Source of the DNA: a virus
Virus record (IMG/VR): IMGVR_UViG_3300037742_000043
Span: 1 to 51,160 of that record
DNA length: 51,160 nt
Direction: 5' to 3' (one strand)
The position numbers and the translations under genes were made by a program. Of the stretch, positions 6,392 to 51,160 are shown in pieces. Within the stretch, counting starts at the first letter, position 1, and the number at the start of each line of letters is the position of its first letter. The notes under the pieces were generated by a model. The model saw only the letters and a program-made list of their open reading frames with translations. It was not told the origin of the DNA and made no database searches.

Positions 6392-6934
6392 CTATCCCCC
6401 GCTCGTCAGAAGTTTCTTATTAATCATCGCGTATCGTGATTCATCATACCATGCATCCTTCCACTGTGCAGAGGCGAGCTTCTTTCCTTCGTAAATCCCG
6501 CCGCACTCGATGACAAACTGGTGCACCTTGGCGTTTACATACTTTGGGATTGTGATATTGAGTCTACGAAACCCAAAGTGATCCATGGTCAGTTGCACCA
6601 TCTTGCGCACAAGCTGCTTTTTGTTATCAATTCGCCGGTCGAAGAAGGTGAAGTGTGCGTCAGCCTCGTGTTGATAGATGTTCGTCAGATAAAAGACGCC
6701 TGTCTTCAAATCATCAACTGCCCAAAAGATCCCGTTCATAATCGGATCATCATGAGGGTAGGAGAATTGCATGAAGATGCGTACAAAATCTTCCGGCCCA
6801 CTCAGCTTCCGCCCAAACACAACTTCAAACGGCGCCATCTTTTCATACAACGCGTTAAGACTCGCGACGCTAATCGGATATGGTGCGACGGTATAGTCCC
6901 GTCTGCTCGATCGAATAAGAACGCTATCCATCAT
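6392..6934 (-). CDS. GNAT (RimJ/RimL-like) acetyltransferase-fold protein, 180 aa
   Basis: C-terminal pattern FGFRRLNITIPKYVNAKVHQFVIECGGIYEGKKL..W.D...YAMI matches the RimL-type GNAT core. The Q/R-x-x-G-x-G/A loop is not obvious. ATGA coupling to the upstream gene. Confidence 0.5.
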   Translation of the reverse strand: MMDSVLIRSSRRDYTVAPYPISVASLNALYEKMAPFEVVFGRKLSGPEDFVRIFMQFSYPHDDPIMNGIFWAVDDLKTGVFYLTNIYQHEADAHFTFFDRRIDNKKQLVRKMVQLTMDHFGFRRLNITIPKYVNAKVHQFVIECGGIYEGKKLASAQWKDAWYDESRYAMINKKLLTSGG

Positions 6935-8550
6935 TTCTCTCTTGTATCTGTAGTCTGAATGCCAAGGATTCTGTACTCAAGTACTTCAAACGACCCGATT
7001 GTTGATGAGAGTTTCCATACGTATTCGGAGGTCGTGATGTTTTTGTAGCAGGTGAGGATCTTGCGCTGGCCGATGTCGGTGGCGGAAATGGTGATGGTCT
7101 TATATGTTTCAAATGTCTTCCCACCATTTCTCGAAAAGAGCACATCAAAAGTCCCCTCTCTCTTTGGCCGATACTTCAACAAGAACTTAGTTACCGAAAT
7201 GTTCTGCTTCTGAAGCTCGAAGATCTTAGAGACAAGGTCAGCCGTAAACGCCACTCCATTATCCGTATCCATCGATGAGTCATCTTGCAACAACACTCCA
7301 TCCTTCAATCCATACGTAATCGTCGACGGGCTCACATCTATATCGCTCAAATCATCATACACTCCGATAAGATCGTCATAGACGCCGACTAGATCATCAT
7401 AAACAAGTTCGCCTAGAATCTCGTCAATAGGAAAAACACCATTAACCAAATACCGCTCATCCTTCACCCAAGTCGCTGTGTCATAGTCGAATACATACAC
7501 AATAGTAGTAGTGCTACTATCGCTAGGGATGCAAAGATGATAGCGATTTCCTTTCGGGTCGAATGAGCCTTGAAGTGTGAGATTGTCCGTGATAATTCCA
7601 TCTGTCCCCCCAAGATCCTTGCGTATTGCAGTTCCAATAGGCACCGGAGAATTACCAATCTCGAACGTATAGACTTGATTCGATCGGTAGTCATACCATG
7701 CGATGCCGTTGGAGGTTTGGGCGGCAGAGTCTGGCGAGTCACAGCCGACGTTGGGATATGACGCAGTAAACTGAAATGGCAATGTCGCTACTGGCCGCTT
7801 CGTCGCAGTCCATAAACTTCGCTCTCGCAGGATCAACATCACAGAGGCGAATCCGAAGAGTCCGGTGATTTCATCGCTGAAGTCGCCTTGACCTTCTACC
7901 AGTGCGACATTTCCAGCGGAGATGTCAACCAGTGCGCTCCACTCGGCGAAGTTCAGATCCCCGCTCCAGCCAACCTGTGTCGGATTAGGCGAAGTGGTAT
8001 CAAACAGATTCGCCCCGATGATTCGATTGAAGAATCCGCAGATGTATTTGTACTTCGGCGCATTGCCAAGGTCAGCATAGGTATCCGCGGTGAAGTTAAT
8101 CTCTTGAATCTCATCGGTGCCGGATGTAAAGAAGAATCGGTCGTTGATCGCGAGAGTCTTCTGTCTCTGATTGACAATGAAGCCAGCACCAGTGATTTCT
8201 TCCCATGACGCAGGCGCCCTTCTCCATATCTCATCCTTGTCAAATCGCACAAAGATCGCAGTCCCATCGAATCGTGCAAAGCGCACGACGTTGAGAATCG
8301 GATTGACATTAGGAATCGCACCCTGCGGTGCAAAGGCATCATCACTACTCCCCTCACGCGAGAAGACAATATCGCCATAAATCCGCATATTCGTTGCGGA
8401 TTGGGTCTGATCAGGCTTGAGATCAGCAGGATCAAACCATGTATTAATCCCACCACTCGCCTTCTCAGAGAACATCTCGACGTCCTCTTCAGTCACCTGA
8501 GTTGCCCCGCCAAGCTTATTCCCTATCGGTCTTCCCACAAGATTCGCCAT
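6931..8550 (-). CDS. putative tail structural protein, 539 aa
   Basis: Large ORF in the tail part of the late operon, TAATG overlap with the upstream ORF. No motif recognised. Confidence 0.4.
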   Translation of the reverse strand: MANLVGRPIGNKLGGATQVTEEDVEMFSEKASGGINTWFDPADLKPDQTQSATNMRIYGDIVFSREGSSDDAFAPQGAIPNVNPILNVVRFARFDGTAIFVRFDKDEIWRRAPASWEEITGAGFIVNQRQKTLAINDRFFFTSGTDEIQEINFTADTYADLGNAPKYKYICGFFNRIIGANLFDTTSPNPTQVGWSGDLNFAEWSALVDISAGNVALVEGQGDFSDEITGLFGFASVMLILRERSLWTATKRPVATLPFQFTASYPNVGCDSPDSAAQTSNGIAWYDYRSNQVYTFEIGNSPVPIGTAIRKDLGGTDGIITDNLTLQGSFDPKGNRYHLCIPSDSSTTTIVYVFDYDTATWVKDERYLVNGVFPIDEILGELVYDDLVGVYDDLIGVYDDLSDIDVSPSTITYGLKDGVLLQDDSSMDTDNGVAFTADLVSKIFELQKQNISVTKFLLKYRPKREGTFDVLFSRNGGKTFETYKTITISATDIGQRKILTCYKNITTSEYVWKLSSTIGSFEVLEYRILGIQTTDTREK

Positions 8551-44515: not shown

Positions 44516-46008
44516 CAGATCCAAGGATTCCCGGTGTACCAAAGGCAGATTGGGAGCCAATTCAAAACAGCTACAACCTCCTCCTCAATCTTCCCGACTT
44601 CCAACTAAGAGCCCTTGCGCAGATTTATCTCAACACACCTGCCAAGGCAACTCTATGGCTTTCTTATTCAGACGCGTATCGCATCACCCTTGTTTCATAC
44701 TATCATCCCAACAGTCCCTCGTCTGTCTACCTGCCATACCTCTACGACTACGCACTCTGCGTACTCAATGGAATCACACCGGAGAATCCGATGAATTTTA
44801 GCGACCTTAATATCTATTTTCTCAATGACCCGCAGTATGGCGGTGCAGCGGAATACCAATCCCCTACTGCACTTGGCACAGACAACTATCCAGCACTTGC
44901 CGCAATCCTCAATGCAATAGAAGACACCGGAAAAGGCGGCGTCATCATGATCCCCCCATCTCCATACGGCTACTACTTCTCTACCTTCCCCAACATTCGC
45001 CTCGATTACACAAAGATCATGGGCTTCGGCATTGGTGCCACGCGCATTGTCTACGAGCCTGAAGATCCCGGCGAGAACGCGGCGTTTAAATTCTACTCGT
45101 CCGGCGCGACAACTCTTGTCGGATGTGAGATCGGCAACTTCACTCTCGAAGGATTCAACCCCGATCTCCTCTCCCTTTCCGCCAAGAACAATCGCCATAA
45201 AAAGATCGGCATCCTAACCGAATGTGTCTCGCACCTCACCATTCATCCGATTCAGATCAAACTATGGAACACTGGCTCCGCAGTCTATGGCGTAGAGGGC
45301 GGTAGTGAAGGCATTACCTCGCGCGGCAAAGAATTCATCCGCGTCGTCAATCCATACATCATCGCCGACCGACCACTTGTATTCGAAGCCAACACCCGCG
45401 AACCATCCTCCTTCGACGTTGACGAATACAATATTTCAGACTTCGACTTTCGTATGCCTATCGCCCCAGACAAATACGCAGACGAGGCCGCCATCACATT
45501 CGTCGGTGACCTCGATGTACATGAATTAAAAACCACAGGCAAATCCAACATCGCAGGTGGCAGTGGGAATGTATACTGGAACAATAGCGCAGGCACTCAT
45601 GCGTGCAACAATGTGACCTTCAGTGGATGGCGAGCGGAGCAACAGAGCGGTGCTATGAAGAATATTGATCTACGCTTCAACGTCCCTAACCCACTCTTCG
45701 GTCTAGTGATCGACGACGTAACAATGAGTCGCGAAACAGCCGGAATCTATCTCGACGGGTGCCGCGCAAAGATCAGCAATTCATTCTATCCACGATTCGC
45801 AGATCAAGACGCAGGACTTCTTGGGATCGAAATCGGCCCACTCGCTGCCGAGTCTAGCGAAACAATCATTGACAACTTTCTCCTCCCCGACACCAACACA
45901 GTTGACTCAGCCATTCTCTACGACTGGGGCACCAAGACAGTCCAATTTACCACCGCAGATGAACAAACCGGATTCAATCAACTCGCGAGTCGGATGACGA
46001 TTCGATGA
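44512..46008 (+). CDS. pectate-lyase-superfamily beta-helix protein (putative depolymerase/tailspike), 498 aa
   Basis: YPALAAILNAIEDTGKGGVIMIPPSPYGYYFS matches the Pectate_lyase_3 N-terminal signature (d.t.Aiq.Ai....gG.v..P.G.Y). Beta-helix-like rungs follow. Confidence 0.6.
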   Translation: MTDPRIPGVPKADWEPIQNSYNLLLNLPDFQLRALAQIYLNTPAKATLWLSYSDAYRITLVSYYHPNSPSSVYLPYLYDYALCVLNGITPENPMNFSDLNIYFLNDPQYGGAAEYQSPTALGTDNYPALAAILNAIEDTGKGGVIMIPPSPYGYYFSTFPNIRLDYTKIMGFGIGATRIVYEPEDPGENAAFKFYSSGATTLVGCEIGNFTLEGFNPDLLSLSAKNNRHKKIGILTECVSHLTIHPIQIKLWNTGSAVYGVEGGSEGITSRGKEFIRVVNPYIIADRPLVFEANTREPSSFDVDEYNISDFDFRMPIAPDKYADEAAITFVGDLDVHELKTTGKSNIAGGSGNVYWNNSAGTHACNNVTFSGWRAEQQSGAMKNIDLRFNVPNPLFGLVIDDVTMSRETAGIYLDGCRAKISNSFYPRFADQDAGLLGIEIGPLAAESSETIIDNFLLPDTNTVDSAILYDWGTKTVQFTTADEQTGFNQLASRMTIR

Positions 46009-46173
46009 TCATGCTGTAACCATCATTGCAATCTGGTCGGCGCAGTTCGGTCCCCAAGCCAATCTCTGTCTTCTCACTACGATCTTGCCCGACGCCAGAC
46101 CGGCCCGCTTCTGGGCCGGGGCTGCGCGGTTGCAGTTTGCTCCCCTATCCCAACCACCAATAAGGAAAAGGTT

Positions 46174-46371
46174 ATGAGAATTATAGACCAAAATGACGAA
46201 CAAGATCGCAGAGTCATCACAGTAGAGTTTGACAGCGTAGATCTTATGAAGCTGCATCGAAGAACCTTAGCAAGGTTTCACAATGTTCTACACGACATGC
46301 TAAACGAACTCTATCCGGAAGTAGATGAAGATGATAAGCAAGAAGAAAGTCAATCACATCGGTCCACTTGA
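46174..46371 (+). CDS. hypothetical acidic protein, 65 aa
   Basis: AAGGAAAAGG RBS. Its 3' end overlaps the polA-N start. Confidence 0.45.
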   Translation: MRIIDQNDEQDRRVITVEFDSVDLMKLHRRTLARFHNVLHDMLNELYPEVDEDDKQEESQSHRST

Positions 46372-47962
46372 TGCCTCGATCTTCATCCTCGGAAAAGCGC
46401 CCGGAGCAGACGAGGATCATTATGGCATTCCATTTGTAGGCCAAATCGGTAAGTTTCTCGACCATTGCCTTTCTCTCGCCGGAATAGATCGAGAATCCTG
46501 CCGCATCGGAAATGTCTGCAACTACAAACCAACAAGAAACATCTTCGCAATTCTGAAAGACTCTGATCAACTAAAGGAATCTCATGCCGAACTCTCTGCT
46601 TACTTGGAAACGTACAGACCTCGCATTATCATCGCTCTTGGAAATGAAGCTTTGCGATATCTTAGACATCACGATGGAATCTCTAATTGGCGAGGAAGTG
46701 TCTTACCATATTCACATAATTCATTCATCATACCGACCTACCACCCTGCTGACGCCATCCGAGACGGAACCTTCGCCCCACAAGTTGTCTTCGATCTCAC
46801 CAAGGCCAAGCGAGTTTTAGATCATGGCTACACCAGACCAGTCCATGACTTCGTAATCGACCCGCACCCTGATCAACTCGAATCAATCCTAGAAGAGGTG
46901 CGCAATGCCCCGTTCATCGCCGCCGACATTGAAACAGGAATGTCAACGTCTTATGTCAAGTGTTTCGGCTTCGCAGTCAGTTCAAACAGAGCCTTTACCT
47001 TCCGAAATCATTACGATGTTGGTATCGAGCAATCTTTTTCCAAGATGGTATCTGCTGTTATATCAGCAGCCAAGGAGATCGTCTACCACAACGGCAGCTA
47101 CGACACCTCGCAACTAAGAGACAATCATGTCGAATACGCAGAAAGGCTTGACTATGACACCATGCTCGCCCAGCGAGTCCTCGAACCTGACCTTCCAATC
47201 GGTCTCGCCTTCTGTGCCTCTATCTACACCGACGAACCGTACTACAAAAACGACGGAAAGGAAACAGGCAAGCGCATTACGTGGGAGAAACTTGCACCGT
47301 ACAATTGTATCGACTGTATTGTTACATGGCAGACGAGGGTTGAGCAAGAAAAGATTTTCGCGCTGGATAGTATTCTCGATACTGACAGGAAATTCATATT
47401 CAGCCGTATACCCCTTATGCAAGAATTTCAGCGCAATGGGATGCTGGTTGATGAAGAAAGAAGGGATACGCTTCGCAGATCGACACAGGCCAAGCTATCA
47501 CAATCAGAAAGGATTGTTAACATATCCACCGGCTACTCTCTTAACTTCCGAAGCTCTAAGCAAGTAAAGTCGCTTCTTTACGACATTCTAAAACTACCGA
47601 TCAGAAAGAAGCGAAACGCAAGTGGCGAAGAAGTAATCTCCGCCGACGAAGACGCAATTGTCTCCCTTATCCAATACGTTCAAGGGCAAATAGATGACAA
47701 AAAGACAAATACGGGTAGAGATCCGTGGCTCCTTCGACTTTATGCCCTCAAGAGTATCCTCGATATTAGAGGCAATGAGAAGCTTATTTCTTCCTACTTC
47801 GATGCAGCATCATCCGCCGACGGACGCATACGTTCCTCCTACTATCCTGCTGGAACAGACACAGGAAGATGGAGTTGTGGTACTTACGTTGACGGAACAG
47901 GATTGAATGCGCAAACACTCCCAAGACTTGAAATCGAAATCACTACTCAACAGGAGGCATGA
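46325..47962 (+). CDS. polA: DNA polymerase A, N-terminal piece: UDG-like domain + 3'-5' exonuclease + N-terminal part of the polymerase domain, 545 aa
   Basis: UDG family-4-like GKAPGADEDHYGIPFVGQIGKFL...HPA. Exo motifs FIAADIETG, YHNGSYD, YNCID. DGRIRSSYYPAGTDTGRWS...NAQTLP, then a stop 12 codons later. Confidence 0.8.
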   Translation: MKMISKKKVNHIGPLDASIFILGKAPGADEDHYGIPFVGQIGKFLDHCLSLAGIDRESCRIGNVCNYKPTRNIFAILKDSDQLKESHAELSAYLETYRPRIIIALGNEALRYLRHHDGISNWRGSVLPYSHNSFIIPTYHPADAIRDGTFAPQVVFDLTKAKRVLDHGYTRPVHDFVIDPHPDQLESILEEVRNAPFIAADIETGMSTSYVKCFGFAVSSNRAFTFRNHYDVGIEQSFSKMVSAVISAAKEIVYHNGSYDTSQLRDNHVEYAERLDYDTMLAQRVLEPDLPIGLAFCASIYTDEPYYKNDGKETGKRITWEKLAPYNCIDCIVTWQTRVEQEKIFALDSILDTDRKFIFSRIPLMQEFQRNGMLVDEERRDTLRRSTQAKLSQSERIVNISTGYSLNFRSSKQVKSLLYDILKLPIRKKRNASGEEVISADEDAIVSLIQYVQGQIDDKKTNTGRDPWLLRLYALKSILDIRGNEKLISSYFDAASSADGRIRSSYYPAGTDTGRWSCGTYVDGTGLNAQTLPRLEIEITTQQEA

Positions 47963-47965
47963 ATC

Positions 47966-48211
47966 ATGGCTGGATCATTCAACCATCTAGTTGACGAGGA
48001 TGGTACGTATCACTCAGATAATGTAGAGAACATGAAGGATTGTGGCGAGGCACTACGAGATTGCTGGCGAATCATCTATGCTTTAGCAAAAGGGAACTCA
48101 AAGAAGATCTCAAAGGTTTGTCAAGAAATAGGAACCGTAGATCCTTGGAGCGAAGAGTACGGCGAAGCAAGAAAGAAGAAGATGCAACCTCTTAAGAAGG
48201 ATGTATGGTGA
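47966..48211 (+). CDS. intervening ORF 1, 81 aa
   Basis: AGGAGG RBS, starts 4 nt after the polA-N stop. Confidence 0.55.
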   Translation: MAGSFNHLVDEDGTYHSDNVENMKDCGEALRDCWRIIYALAKGNSKKISKVCQEIGTVDPWSEEYGEARKKKMQPLKKDVW

Positions 48212-48268
48212 ACGCGCAGAAAGGAATGATAATCACACAGACTTTACCTCGACTGGATATGGAGATTC

Positions 48269-48469
48269 ATGAAAATTGTCCCGACGAAAGAGAAGCTGTC
48301 ATCCTTGCAGCTAACGCTGTTTGAAAAGAAACAACAAGATCGGTGGATTTGGCGAGATATTATAGCTCAAGCTAGAGGTCAAGCTCTCGAAGATCCGCAT
48401 GATCTCTGGGGTCATTGGGGTAGCGATGAGGAACTCGATGACCTACGTTATGGTCGCGGCGAATACTAA
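48269..48469 (+). CDS. intervening ORF 2, 66 aa (weak similarity to ORF 1)
   Basis: GGAG RBS lies inside junction-repeat copy B. IWRDIIAQARG resembles CWRIIYALAKG of ORF 1. Confidence 0.55.
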   Translation: MKIVPTKEKLSSLQLTLFEKKQQDRWIWRDIIAQARGQALEDPHDLWGHWGSDEELDDLRYGRGEY

Positions 48470-48499
48470 TCCTTCCACGACTGGAGATAGAGATAGACG

Positions 48500-48700
48500 A
48501 TGAGGTTCAATAACTTAACAGACGAACAACTCAACAAACTAGTTCAGCAGTTTGAGTCAGCTATCGCTCTTGCCAATAACACTGGAACGGTTCATTTCGC
48601 CCTCGACGCTCTCAACGAAGTACAAGGCGAGATTAATCGAAGACAAGAGTTGAGGCTCAAGCAAGAAGTTCCAAGTTGGTGGCAAGGCTTGTTGAGATGA
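48500..48700 (+). CDS. intervening ORF 3, 66 aa
   Basis: RBS lies inside junction-repeat copy C. ATGA coupling to polA-C. Confidence 0.55.
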   Translation: MRFNNLTDEQLNKLVQQFESAIALANNTGTVHFALDALNEVQGEINRRQELRLKQEVPSWWQGLLR

Positions 48701-49542
48701 GCGCTCTCCCAATCCAATCTGCAAAGAAAAAAGCCGCTATTCGATCCTTCATCACTTGCGCCCCCGCCAACGTACTCATCGAACTCGACCTCAGCGCAGC
48801 AGAAAGCTGGTGCGTAGCTCATCTCGCGAATGATCAGAACATGATTCAGCAGTTAGAGCTAGGACAGCTTCATCAGTATTCTGCGCGGATGATCTTCCGC
48901 GATCCATCAATCACCAAGGCGAACAAGACCGAGTACTACATCGGCAAACGAATGAACCATCTTTGCGGTTACCGTGGCAGTCCTGAGATGCTAACAACAA
49001 CAATCAACAAAGATGGCGAGATCACAGTCGCACTAAGACAGATCAAAGTCTACCACAAGCTCTGGCACTCAACCTACAACATCACAAATTGGTGGGCCGA
49101 CATTGAGCGACGACTGCGAAATAACGATGGAACGCTCATTACTGCTTACGGAAAGAAACGGAAGTTCTGGGGTTTTTTTAATAGCGATCTACTTAAGGCC
49201 GCCACAGCCTTTGAGCCTCAGAGTCTGGTGTCATATCATATGGACGGTGCTGTCCATCCTGACATCGGCATTCCGGGAGGCTTACTCGAAATCCAAAGAC
49301 AAATCACAATCCCATATCCATCTATCAGACTCATTAACACATCACACGACAGCGTCCTCATCGAATGCCCTCGGCCCATCTCACTGGAAATAGCCCTACG
49401 TTGTAAAGCCTTACTTACTCGGCCATTGATGATTCATGGCCAGACCTTTACTATCCCGGTGGATTGTGAGCGATACGATAGAAGATGGAAGGAAGACGGA
49501 GAGCGACTTGTCGGTGAACGGTTCGAGAGCATTGGTCATTGA
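48697..49542 (+). CDS. polA: DNA polymerase A, C-terminal piece (motifs A, B, C), 281 aa
   Basis: Start at ATG 48697 (ATGA coupling). LPIQSAKKKAAIRSF, motif A LIELDLSAAESW, motif B GKRMNHLCGYRGS, motif C TSHDSVLIE. Confidence 0.8.
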   Translation: MSALPIQSAKKKAAIRSFITCAPANVLIELDLSAAESWCVAHLANDQNMIQQLELGQLHQYSARMIFRDPSITKANKTEYYIGKRMNHLCGYRGSPEMLTTTINKDGEITVALRQIKVYHKLWHSTYNITNWWADIERRLRNNDGTLITAYGKKRKFWGFFNSDLLKAATAFEPQSLVSYHMDGAVHPDIGIPGGLLEIQRQITIPYPSIRLINTSHDSVLIECPRPISLEIALRCKALLTRPLMIHGQTFTIPVDCERYDRRWKEDGERLVGERFESIGH

Positions 49543-50812
49543 GAAGCCGAAGCGACGACTGGATGATTGGATTACAAGCTATATCGAATGGGTGACGCCG
49601 AGAGTGCGAGTGCCGCCACAGTACACTGCATGGTGCAGCATCTTTGCCCTTTCAACTGCACTCGAAAGAAAGGTCAAGATCCCCCGCAAGTATCTTGGCG
49701 GATTCGACTGCGATCCATTCCTTTTCATCATGCTCATCGGTGACCCCGGCATCGGCAAGGGCACATCCATGAGTCAAGTGAAGCATCTTCTCTACCGCGT
49801 CGGATGTCTGAATCGAGGCGAGAACATTTTTACGAAGGAACGACTGTTTCAACAACTCGTCGAACTCCCTCGTTCATCAGTGTATCTCATCCTCGGCGAA
49901 TTCGCAGACGTTCTACAGAAGAACAAGAATGATGTCTTTGACCTGTTGTTGACGCTCTACGACGGCACCGACGAGATCAGCGAAGGCACACGTATGCGAT
50001 CCAAGGAAATTGCTGTTCGGCCTTGTCTCAACTTCATCGCTGGAACAACCTCTGCATGGATCATTGAGAACATTACCTCTGGAATTATCGGAGGTGGACT
50101 CCCATCACGCATAAGTTGGGTCTACGCTGACTCCGACGAAGCTGGCCCCATCAAAGTCTTCTACGACGAAGATGTAGAATCCGATGCATTCGACGCCCTT
50201 GAAGACGATCTAGTCCATGACCTTGAGATCATTGCGAACATGGAAGGGGATATGAAGCTTACTCGTGGAAGGGTTCGCAACAGCATGGACCCTGACCTTG
50301 CCAAGTACGGTGACGAAAACGCAGGCGCATGGTTCGAATCATGGTGCCAGTCGAATCGTCTCACTGTTGAAGACCCGAATATGCAGAACTTCTTCGCCCG
50401 CAAACGTACACATCTGCATAAGATCGCGATGATCCGATCAATCTCATTACGAGATGACATGGTAATCACCATCGCAGACTATGAATTCGCAATCAACGCA
50501 GTTGAAAAGACAGAGAAAAAGGTCCATAAAGTCCTTGGTCGCATGGGCAAGAACATCTATGTCGAAGACACGATGCGGATTCGGACATACATTACAGAGA
50601 ACGGACCAGTAGATGATGAGGAGATTCGCCAACGATTCGAGTCCGCCGCTGAACCTCGCAAGCTCGACGACCTCATTCGAGGCATGGAACTCGCAGGCAT
50701 CATCGCTAAGATGCCAACTCATCTCCTACCTGACGGAAAGAAGCACAAAACATTCTGGGTACTTCGCGATGCACTAGAGGGGATTATGAAATCACTACCG
50801 AGGCCAGCATGA
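49436..50812 (+). CDS. P-loop NTPase, DUF3987/helicase-like (start uncertain), up to 458 aa
   Basis: LIGDPGIGKGTS (Walker A-like; K is followed by G), VYLILGEF (Walker B-like). ATG 49436 overlaps polA-C by 107 nt. TTG 49508 is preceded by GGAGAG. Confidence 0.45.
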   Translation: MARPLLSRWIVSDTIEDGRKTESDLSVNGSRALVIEKPKRRLDDWITSYIEWVTPRVRVPPQYTAWCSIFALSTALERKVKIPRKYLGGFDCDPFLFIMLIGDPGIGKGTSMSQVKHLLYRVGCLNRGENIFTKERLFQQLVELPRSSVYLILGEFADVLQKNKNDVFDLLLTLYDGTDEISEGTRMRSKEIAVRPCLNFIAGTTSAWIIENITSGIIGGGLPSRISWVYADSDEAGPIKVFYDEDVESDAFDALEDDLVHDLEIIANMEGDMKLTRGRVRNSMDPDLAKYGDENAGAWFESWCQSNRLTVEDPNMQNFFARKRTHLHKIAMIRSISLRDDMVITIADYEFAINAVEKTEKKVHKVLGRMGKNIYVEDTMRIRTYITENGPVDDEEIRQRFESAAEPRKLDDLIRGMELAGIIAKMPTHLLPDGKKHKTFWVLRDALEGIMKSLPRPA

Positions 50813-51027
50813 TAGACAGAAAAAAGCGCATTGAGGATTACGATGAAGAGAAATCGAAACCTCACTATCTCTTTCACGAAGATGGTACTCCTCATTACAG
50901 AAAGGCCGAGACAGGTTGTTGCGATGGGTTTGGGGAAGTATGCGAAGCATGTGGCGGCTTCTGTCATTACCAACCTGTCTACGGTGGTTATTACTACAAA
51001 TGCGAAGACTGTTTAAAGACACAATAA
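50809..51027 (+). CDS. Cys-rich (zinc-binding?) protein, 72 aa
   Basis: ATGA coupling. CCDGFGEVCEACGGFC...YKCEDC. Last gene before the terminator. Confidence 0.55.
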   Translation: MIDRKKRIEDYDEEKSKPHYLFHEDGTPHYRKAETGCCDGFGEVCEACGGFCHYQPVYGGYYYKCEDCLKTQ

Positions 51028-51033
51028 GAAAAA

Positions 51034-51160
51034 CAAAAAGGCCCGATCATCCAATCACTCGGATGTCGGGCTCTTTTCTTCCTTCGCTCGGCTTCTCTAG
51101 TCTTTGATGCCTTTGTACAGCTCCATCGCCTGCCGCGCAGTAAGTATTCGCAACGCCACC
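51034..51160. repeat. terminal direct repeat, copy 2 (identical to 1-127)
   Basis: Exact 127-nt match to the window start. Confidence 0.95.

Follow-up and report, generated by a model that had tools for sequence, protein, structure and literature searches.

A family A DNA polymerase encoded in two pieces, with a variable gene slot and probable relic gene ends between them, in a viral genome

Two polymerase genes and the small ORFs between them

The window analysed here is the whole stretch of 51,160 nucleotides from IMG/VR record IMGVR_UViG_3300037742_000043, and the polymerase genes, the ORFs and repeat copies between them, and the DUF3987 gene described below lie on its + strand. The ORF list placed PolA-N (545 aa) at 46325–47962 and PolA-C (281 aa counted from its ATG) at 48697–49542, with three small ORFs between them, confirming the coordinates given in a first-pass annotation of this DNA. 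PolA-N comprises a UDG-like domain (Pfam UDG, E 2.4e-22), a 3'-5' exonuclease domain (DNA_pol_A_exo1, 4.5e-7), and the N-terminal portion of a family A polymerase domain, which runs to TGRWS...NAQTLPR and is followed by the tail LEIEITTQQEA. PolA-C starts with a lysine-rich head (MSALPIQSAKKKAA), followed by IRSF and then the family A motifs A, B, and C; DLSAAE, K...Y.G, and HDS were present in the translation of the polymerase. Because PolA-N covered positions 6–123 of the Pfam DNA_pol_A profile (PF00476) and PolA-C covered positions 131–354 (E 5.4e-11), the break was fixed at the NxQxxP motif, in agreement with the first-pass annotation, which had described polA as broken at NxQxLP. When joined, the two pieces aligned with intact phage PolA proteins, including across the junction. 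The TxxGR...NxQxxP region and motifs A, B, and C of a family A polymerase domain were all found, distributed over two ORFs in different frames with 735 nt between them and not on a single polypeptide. The DUF3987 primase/helicase-like gene 3' of polA (49436–50812) also follows polA in relatives with an intact polA and was used as a synteny anchor.

Three tightly packed small ORFs without any nuclease or intein domain occupy the gap, as originally described. ORF1 (47966–48211, 81 aa) has a good Shine-Dalgarno sequence (AGGAGG) within the PolA-N end and a TGA stop within copy B of a repeat discussed below; ORF2 (48269–48469, 66 aa) follows; and the stop of ORF3 (48500–48700, 66 aa) overlaps the PolA-C start (ATGA). 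The codon-usage margin was 0.138 for ORF1 and 0.059 for ORF2, the weakest coding signal of the three. Single-sequence AlphaFold models predicted small helical proteins, with a three-helix arrangement for ORF1 (pLDDT 72.8) and a helical hairpin for ORF3 (pLDDT 70.5). Structure prediction thus provided helical models but no significant fold match, as neither model matched an entry in BFVD at E 0.001 or better. None of the three ORFs matched Pfam or PHROGs, and searches for homologues of ORF1 and ORF2 among 5.8 billion proteins returned the queries alone. ORF3 had one homologue, located in the same slot of a related locus (L008; E 8e-7); an exhaustive HMMER search with ORF3 gave coiled-coil noise only, and an ORF3 alignment found no match in IMG/VR. 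No hit was common to any two of the ORFs in any search. The only pair aligned directly, ORF1 and ORF2, gave a match covering 7 of 15 residues, with E 0.015 when just these two sequences were compared, which does not support the paralogy suggested by the first-pass annotation.

Several classes of element and recoding were considered for this region and rejected. A free-standing homing endonuclease (HNH, GIY-YIG, or LAGLIDADG) was dismissed on the absence of Pfam, PHROGs, and fold matches for the small ORFs, and a transposon or insertion sequence on the absence of a transposase domain and the short, scattered nature of the inverted repeats in 47700–48900. Transposon target duplication was likewise rejected, as the candidate CTCCCAA pair is not conserved in relatives. 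Programmed frameshifting or bypass would have to cross 735 nt, three ORFs, and many stops, and the relative frame of the two pieces varies among relatives.

The split and the slot in related loci

Relatives in IMG/VR were recovered by an alignment-based scan; a scan with the single PolA-N protein gave nothing. Approximately 50 related PolA-N protein clusters (31–71% identity) formed one clade in a neighbour-joining tree, in which the split group was monophyletic. The homologues (P0002–P0050) were approximately 495–603 aa long, each ending in NxQxxPR and a short tail, and all clade loci with sufficient sequence encoded the polymerase as two genes with the break in the same loop. In approximately 20 distinct loci, the N and C pieces were collinear and followed by DUF3987. 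Looking for relatives with an intact polA or another copy number, as had been proposed, yielded intact polymerases (760–940 aa) only at ≤35% identity, whereas the clade itself was split throughout. At four loci (L007, L018, L019, and L091), the halves abut with nothing between them. The split is ancestral to the whole clade and not a recent cassette hit, so the proposal that a cassette had entered the polymerase was not borne out. The break sits in a variable loop at the surface, between NxQxxPR and IRxxF and immediately 5' of motif A. The frame of the C piece relative to the N piece was −1 in L091 and +1 in L007 and L019; a possible −1 frameshift route between the halves was seen in L091 alone. 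As a separate gene, PolA-C of the split clade had no isolate match in a collection of 50,697 phages.

Among relatives, the space between the polymerase halves held 0–5 unrelated genes, and the interval between the N stop and the beginning of the C match ranged from −16 to 1260 nt. The cargo included Dcm methylase, ThyX, DUF3310, RyR-domain, and Zn-ribbon-like proteins. Cargo genes move, as the Zn-ribbon-like gene in the slot of two loci (L004 and L005) was found elsewhere in this window, at 50809–51027. The gap is a hypervariable slot and became a hot spot of accessory-gene gain and loss because the inter-gene space tolerates anything. ORF1–3 are cargo and not polymerase subunits, the other role that had been considered for them, since ORF1 and ORF2 have no homologues and the slots of relatives hold unrelated genes or none.

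The first of the three junction copies, copy A (47903–47941; LNAQTLPRLEIEI), is translated and forms the authentic C terminus of PolA-N. It carries the motif PR-x-x-[IV]-E-[IVL], which was conserved throughout the split clade, and the alignment of PolA-N tails gave the consensus NAQTxPRExIE with an invariant R534; LPR-x-x-IE-I is thus the conserved end of PolA-N clade-wide, not cassette DNA. The tails were net negative in 47 of 48 proteins, and the PolA-C heads net positive in 14 of 16. The LP at the start of PolA-C, which had been read as a resupply of the motif, is missing from the heads of relatives (MKAAIRSF, LKTKFATRSF, and MSGELAILSAPQKAAVRSF). The CTCCCAA repeat was indeed present at both ends of the proposed excision, but it occurs five times on the + strand of the window, and a precise deletion between the two sites would lose the invariant Arg after LP; the proposed excision was not supported.

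In the clade, the start of the downstream gene usually overlaps the PolA-N end (ATGA or TAATG), and the PolA-N stop overlaps the start of the next gene in L004, L090, L091, L009, and L008. Most likely, two polypeptides come together to form the enzyme: an N piece ending in the short strand-like motif PR-x-x-IE-I, usually with acidic residues after it, and a C piece starting with a short basic head, where translation downstream would usually be coupled to the PolA-N end. We infer that the pieces associate through this tail and head on the basis of the conserved acidic tail, the basic head, and the precedent of split NrdA. The acidic tail and basic head provide a hypothesis for how a two-piece family A polymerase may assemble, parallel to NrdA of phage Aeh1.

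Probable relic PolA-N ends before ORF2 and ORF3

The top family reported by the repeat finder consisted of three copies (47921–47940, 48247–48266, and 48475–48494), which verified the LPRL(E/D)(I/M)EI junction copies of the first-pass annotation and their third-position divergence before ORF2 and ORF3. A search of the 51 kb window with 3 mismatches allowed found the motif elsewhere only as copies B and C; a promoter or other regulatory motif was rejected, as the repeat is not genome-wide.

Copy B (48208–48267, frame 1) is a relic PolA-N 3' end reading VNAQ-KGMIIT-QTLPRLDMEI, of which 48238–48267 is the firm portion. It lies within a 39-codon ORF (48205–48324), occupies the entire spacer between ORF1 and ORF2, and supplies a GGAG 4–5 nt 5' of the ORF2 ATG. 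Its LPRLDMEI is nearest to the tails of P0003 and P0004 (LPRLEMEI), not to the tail of this genome. Copy C (48472–48513, frame 1), likewise a relic PolA-N 3' end, reads LPRLEIEIDDEVQ-stop and fills the spacer between ORF2 and ORF3; it has no start codon in its own frame, and the ORF3 ATG (48500) is embedded inside it, an anatomy identical to the overlaps of PolA-N stop and next-gene start in relatives. The repeat ends 1 nt before the start codon of ORF2 and 4 nt before that of ORF3.

The similarity of the LPRLEIEI copies, which the first-pass annotation had left to a statistical alignment, was weak between A and C at the nucleotide level alone (local score 11, equalled by 14 of 200 shuffles) but strong at the codon level, where 7 of 24 nt differ and all differences are synonymous (0 of 200,000 random 7-substitution trials). 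Copies A and B differ at 9 nt with just two amino-acid changes (p ~0.002). When a profile of 45 PolA-N C-terminal ends was run against approximately 1.9 million six-frame residues from all fetched loci, the best non-genuine hits were copies B and C. The repeated element is the PolA-N 3' end itself, and the three ORFs are not detectably related, so the earlier picture of a cassette that multiplied together with its junction was not supported. Service as a purine-rich Shine-Dalgarno region may be part of why the relics are kept, in which case their codon-level conservation would look stronger than it is.

Across the approximately 20 distinct split loci, own-tail local alignment, regular expressions, and the profile revealed clear relics only here and partly in L008, where 16 nt of the genome's own PolA-N end recur exactly, directly before the ORF3 homologue. 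Either most stacking events leave no trace or the scars are quickly lost.

Origin of the relics and comparison with known systems

Taking the clade-old split, the conserved tail, and the variable slot together, we consider it probable that copies B and C arose through recombination between diverged relatives. A slot gene would have its ribosome-binding site and start codon within the PolA-N end. Illegitimate or short-homology recombination between diverged co-infecting relatives could then place a unit 'PolA-N end + gene X' from one phage 5' of a unit 'PolA-N end + gene Y' from another, leaving the second PolA-N end as a non-functional stub that would still act as the translation start region of gene Y. 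On this reading, the order of arrival would have been ORF3 first, ORF2 next, and ORF1 last. The largely synonymous divergence among the three copies fits sequences that were functional polymerase ends while they diverged, each in a separate genome. A donor genome with ORF2 or ORF3 directly after a working PolA-N and with a matching tail was sought and not found. In JGI metagenomes, back-translated LPRLDMEIHE had no match (the collection evidently lacks the window's own contig), and QTLPRLEIEI gave a single unrelated high-GC chance match (L099).

It is possible, albeit rather unlikely, that the relics were instead duplicated in place. An insertion at the junction of PolA-N and the next gene would have duplicated approximately 20–60 bp within the same lineage, by unequal crossing-over of sister genomes, staggered-break repair, or microhomology-mediated insertion, and the duplicate would persist as the carrier of the downstream gene's ribosome-binding site and start. 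The relic before ORF3 does encode the peptide of the genome's own tail (LPRLEIEI), the L008 relic copies L008's own tail exactly, and a start codon adjoins every relic, each of which contains GGAG or GAGA. However, a non-coding copy should drift at all codon positions, whereas all 7 A–C differences are synonymous; the Met codon of copy B is shared with the tails of other lineages; and a divergence of 25–38% over 24 nt without any disruptive change is hard to obtain in this way. In both the window and L008, the relic before the ORF3-type gene resembles the current tail of its own genome, which duplication in place would also produce.

An improbable reading makes the relic ends working parts of cassette exchange. 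The exchanged unit would be 'PolA-N tail sequence + gene', with the tail as the homology for capture or loss, in the manner of integron capture sites; alternatively or in addition, the 39-codon ORF (MVNAQ...QTLPRLDMEI...) would be translated as a decoy of the PolA-N docking tail and compete for PolA-C, through which the cargo could influence replication. Each cassette has a single repeat, at its boundary, and the encoded peptide is conserved; the 39-codon ORF starts with an ATG of its own that overlaps the ORF1 stop, and its codon-usage margin of 0.203 is gene-like. Against this, copy C has no in-frame start codon, other slots in the clade have no repeats, and the motif is found nowhere else in the 51 kb. 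Integron cassettes were rejected, as the genes flanking the slot include no integrase and the junction regions showed no hairpin or other RNA structure beyond that of shuffles (z-scores 0.4–0.8).

Phage polymerase genes are classic targets of self-splicing and homing elements, and restoration of the polymerase at the RNA or protein level by a group I or II intron, an intein, or a homing endonuclease cassette is a further explanation, one also raised by the authors on the split polA of OM43 phages (PMC10580990). We regard it as very improbable here. A cmscan of 46000–50000 with E up to 10 gave no Rfam intron and two noise hits (a snoRNA and an lncRNA), and the two genes of relatives overlap, so that nothing is left to splice. 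An intein or split intein is at odds with the frame change and the stops between the pieces, and Pfam found neither an intein nor a Hint domain; at 11 aa (RLEIEITTQQEA) and 14 aa, respectively, the N tail and the C head are shorter than split-intein halves could be and have no splicing blocks (N-terminal Cys/Ser, C-terminal His-Asn, or +1 nucleophile). The least credible explanation is an assembly chimera, in which strain variants with different slot genes were concatenated by the assembler. The slot does vary between relatives, but the longest exact word common to the three copies is 8 nt (CGACTGGA), too short for any de Bruijn k-mer to have joined them. The Logan assembly of SRR12681888 is identical over 46769–49969, which counters the concern of the first-pass annotation that the interruption might be an artefact, and both contigs close into a circle of approximately 51.03 kb.

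The locus illustrates that an essential replication enzyme can remain permanently split at one permissive loop, and within this polymerase family independent splits of that loop have occurred at least twice. The space between the halves serves as a nursery for orphan and accessory genes. If the recombination origin holds, the relic gene ends would be a rare direct footprint of phage gene stacking, and the moving unit would include the last 20–60 nt of the upstream gene, since these hold the ribosome-binding site and start codon. For annotation, PolA-N proteins are currently labelled 'uracil-DNA glycosylase' in public sources, and the C pieces could be mistaken for fragments.

Tailed phages have hyperplastic regions and 'moron' sites, and illegitimate recombination produces mosaic joints at their gene boundaries, a pattern familiar from the general mycobacteriophage and lambdoid literature. 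Like moron sites, the slot is a fixed intergenic position at which small, mostly orphan genes come and go with joints at gene boundaries; unlike them, it lies within what is functionally one enzyme gene, and its joints are visible as relic 3' ends of the upstream gene, which continue to act as translation start regions. Group I introns with homing endonucleases interrupt the DNA polymerase genes of T7-like and SPO1-like phages. In both cases, ORF-carrying DNA breaks the gene near a conserved motif, whereas the locus described here has no intron RNA, three nuclease-free ORFs, and relatives without intervening DNA.

Split polA genes have been described in the OM43 phages MEP401 and MEP402, with a small ORF of unknown function between the two genes (PMC10580990), and in a marine cyanophage MAG lineage with the Synechococcus WH8016 island (bioRxiv 10.1101/325100). 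As far as the available portions of these two sources go, they resemble our case in having two genes and no recognised intron or nuclease. Their polymerases belong to other lineages (the cyanophage one is described as T7-like), and the same portions note no UDG-like fusion and make no mention of conserved tails, a variable slot, or relic gene ends, all of which are found here. Another parallel is nrdA of Aeromonas phage Aeh1, likewise split ('genes in pieces'), where NrdA-a and NrdA-b join via C- and N-terminal tails that are essential for activity (Crona et al. 2010, PMC3045599). There, as in split polA, an essential replication-related enzyme is encoded by two genes with a foreign gene between them and no splicing. 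The Aeh1 split, however, was a recent event in which a mobile endonuclease (mobE) was inserted and the tails came from the insertion, whereas the polA split is ancient, its cargo lacks nuclease domains and is dispensable throughout the clade, and its tails may play the joining role that those of NrdA do.

Organization of the split polA locus

As the first-pass annotation had described, the family A DNA polymerase is encoded in two halves with three small ORFs between them, a layout confirmed by the ORF list, the raw sequence, and Pfam. On the plus strand, the N-terminal half PolA-N (46325–47962, 545 aa) is followed by ORF1 (47966–48211, 81 aa), ORF2 (48269–48469, 66 aa), ORF3 (48500–48700, 66 aa), the C-terminal half PolA-C (ATG at 48697, to 49542, 281 aa), and a DUF3987 primase/helicase-like gene. 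PolA-N contains UDG-superfamily and 3'-5' exonuclease domains and covers positions 6–123 of the DNA_pol_A profile, and PolA-C covers positions 131–354. None of ORF1–3 had a Pfam match, and no intron-like RNA was found at the locus.

The window begins and ends with the same 127 nt (1–127 and 51034–51160), an exact direct repeat of the kind that assemblers typically leave as an overlap; the genome is therefore closed (circular or circularly permuted) and 51,033 bp long. Over 46769–49969, a Logan assembly of run SRR12681888 was identical to the window, and its contig for this genome measured 51,063 nt. The split polymerase is mis-annotated in public sources: JGI names several PolA-N proteins just 'uracil-DNA glycosylase (family 4)', and ORF3 (48500–48700) is missing from the Logan gene calls of the window copy (L095). 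In relatives, a Cpn10/GroES-like co-chaperonin gene lies a few kb upstream of polA (L008 1–248, L089 780–1220, L090 296–715, and L096 2234–2674; L-numbers denote fetched DNA loci).

Age and position of the split

A search with PolA-N yielded about 50 clusters at 31–71% identity, all 495–603 aa long, and full-length proteins (760–940 aa) appeared only at ≤35% identity. The short homologues all end at one place, just past NxQT[LFM]PR plus a short tail; in an alignment of 45 sequences, the Arg after LP was invariant and the consensus end was NAQTxPRExIE. In a neighbor-joining tree of the common N-terminal region, all split proteins formed one clade, sister to the intact forms. The intact relatives MW202489 and Microcystis phage Mel-JY34 carry a single polA followed by the same DUF3987 gene, and the joined window halves align with intact relatives across the junction. 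The break falls in a loop of variable length that links NLQNIP(R) to the IRxxF strand preceding motif A. This comparative picture shows that the two-gene state of polA is ancestral to the clade. The earlier proposal that a cassette entered the polymerase was not borne out, since the clade-wide two-gene state means that the polymerase was already split beforehand, and the comparative data lend no support to a unique, recent invasion.

An independent split of the same loop was found at L097 4590–5020, whose PolA-N homologue (P0078) was placed among intact polymerases in the tree. Its junction reads NLQNIPAGDE-stop ... MTLPNVREMF, and the gap holds a 60-aa ORF as well as two tiny hydrophobic ones of 33 and 24 aa. 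Another polymerase is broken at a different point (L025 3487–4114), where the N piece runs through IPEDCRDVYIAG to a stop codon, the C piece begins just before motif A (MSKVFVGWDKAQAEARV), and a 95-aa ORF lies between them.

The working polymerase is most likely a heterodimer. Past the invariant PR, the PolA-N residues carry a net negative charge in 47 of 48 proteins (down to -19 where the tails are long and rich in Asp/Glu), and the PolA-C residues that precede IRS carry a net positive one in 14 of 16 loci; the PolA-N tails and PolA-C heads are complementary in charge. The split NrdA of phage Aeh1, which has been studied experimentally, depends on such terminal tails (PMC3045599). The sole non-acidic PolA-N tail, SSILISTSVKI, was observed in P0006 (L091 1600–1680). 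There, no stop codon interrupts the -1 frame between the F-P codons, which form the X XXY YYZ heptamer T TTC CCT, and MKAAIRSF of PolA-C. One uninterrupted polymerase would result from a -1 frameshift or if the assembly were off by 1 nt, and a re-fused gene is a further candidate reading.

Contents of the slot between the halves

The slot was surveyed in the DNA of about 20 distinct split loci. No gene intervenes in L007, L018, L019, and L091, where the halves overlap or lie 3 nt apart. A single gene is present in L004/L005 (Zn-ribbon-like protein), L011–L014 (DUF3310), L092–L094 (a 180-aa protein), and L009, L017, L021, and L029 (unknown). L010, L016, and L089 were assigned two genes, including a RyR-domain protein in L016, with L089 comprising one called ORF and about 400 nt without a called gene. 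Three genes occur in the window and in L096 (ThyX in the latter), and five in L015 (unknown). On contigs that end within the slot, L090 holds at least one gene (C5 cytosine methylase) and L008 at least two (a 61-aa ORF, then an ORF3 homologue). The survey shows that the slot is hypervariable and plastic.

The window itself carries a 72-aa Zn-ribbon-like ORF (50809–51027, …HYQPVYGGYYYKCEDCL) with 50% identity (E 1e-24) to the gene that is the single slot occupant of its closest relative (L004 6599–6814). The same cargo gene occupies different slots, namely the polA slot in L004/L005 and the region past the DUF3987 gene in the window.

ORF1 and ORF2 had no homologue among 5.8 billion proteins, and ORF3 had one, located in the same slot of L008, with otherwise only coiled-coil noise. 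Together with the variable slot contents, these results mark the small proteins as dispensable cargo and not as polymerase subunits, the alternative that the first-pass annotation had considered. By codon usage, ORF1 and ORF3 are supported as genes, whereas the signal for ORF2 is weak. Modelled from single sequences, ORF1 and ORF3 came out as small helical proteins, for which no fold matches were found. The previously noted resemblance between ORF1 and ORF2 does not hold (7 of 15 residues).

Junction repeats and the proposed stacking of cargo genes

The reported recurrence of the PolA-N junction ahead of ORF2 and ORF3 was recovered by a repeat finder, in which the three copies were the top family, and the junction 20-mer pattern was absent elsewhere in the 51 kb. 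As exact words common to the three copies are at most 8 nt long, erroneous joining by the assembler is impossible. Copy A (47903–47941) is nothing other than the conserved PolA-N C-terminus. Among relatives, whichever gene comes next usually has its start overlapped by the PolA-N stop codon (ATGA in L004, L090, and L091; TAATG in L009; an embedded ATG in L008). Copy C (48472–48513) reads LPRLEIEIDDEVQ-stop in a frame without a start codon, with the ORF3 ATG embedded within, which is how a complete PolA-N end looks when it runs into the gene after it. Copy B (48208–48267) reads (V)NAQ-KGMIIT-QTLPRLDMEI up to the ORF2 ATG. Copies B and C make up essentially all the non-coding DNA of the window slot, and they supply ORF2 and ORF3 with their start codon and Shine-Dalgarno sequence. 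A putative 39-codon ORF (48205–48324, MVNAQKGMIITQTLPRLDMEIHENCPDEREAVILAANAV), whose ATG overlaps the ORF1 stop (ATGGTGA), covers the first 18 codons of ORF2 with a gene-like codon-usage margin of 0.203.

Copies B and C can be read as relics, or leftover PolA-N 3' ends in front of a cargo gene. A profile of 45 genuine PolA-N ends, run against 1.9 million six-frame residues, ranked them directly after the genuine ends. Between copies A and B, differences at 9 nt lead to two conservative amino-acid changes (p about 0.002); here and in copy C, the divergence has retained a coding pattern. L008 is an independent case: an exact 16-nt direct repeat, TAGAGGTGAGAGATGA, with an ATG in each copy, lies at 6604–6619 (PolA-N end) and 6932–6947 (right before the ORF3 homologue) and flanks a 328-nt insert with the 61-aa ORF. 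No relics were found in the remaining split loci. The CTCCCAA pair noted earlier is present, but its role as a deletion scar was rejected, because excision would lose the invariant Arg, the heptamer is found at five places in the window, and the LP at the PolA-C head is missing in relatives. This LP might perhaps be the counterpart of the second LP (LPx[IV]R) that lies just before IRxxF in intact relatives.

The main rival explanation holds that the junction was duplicated in place and that the copy was kept as a translation start region. It accounts for the relic before ORF3 matching the genome's own tail, but does not easily explain the purely synonymous divergence of copies A and C (7 of 24 nt; 0 of 200,000 random trials). 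We suggest instead that each relic diverged while it was still a functioning polymerase end in a phage of its own, the phages being moderately diverged from one another, and that recombination then set a 'PolA-N end + gene X' from one genome upstream of a 'PolA-N end + gene Y' from another. Every round would gain one gene and strand the previous PolA-N end as a stub. A donor PolA-N would end in ...QTLPRLDMEIHE... directly before an ORF2 homologue, or in ...LPRLEIEIDDEVQ-stop overlapping an ORF3 homologue. The Met of copy B is shared with the tails of the PolA-N homologues P0003 and P0004 (LPRLEMEI), not with the window's own tail, and the joint, where the ORF1 stop codon falls, is inside copy B. 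The longest-standing occupant would be ORF3, since it is present in the L008 slot too and has an ATGA overlap with the PolA-C start; ORF2 and then ORF1 would have followed.

In phage genomes generally, orphan genes gather at hot spots. A polA in two parts, with small ORFs of unknown function in the gap, has been noted in OM43 phages (PMC10580990) and in a cyanophage lineage (10.1101/325100), and phage Aeh1 has a split essential gene whose products are joined through terminal tails. What is new is a large uncultured clade whose UDG-fused PolA has its permanent split in a single loop, a space between the polymerase halves that serves as a cargo slot, and relic gene ends that would record how cargo gets stacked.
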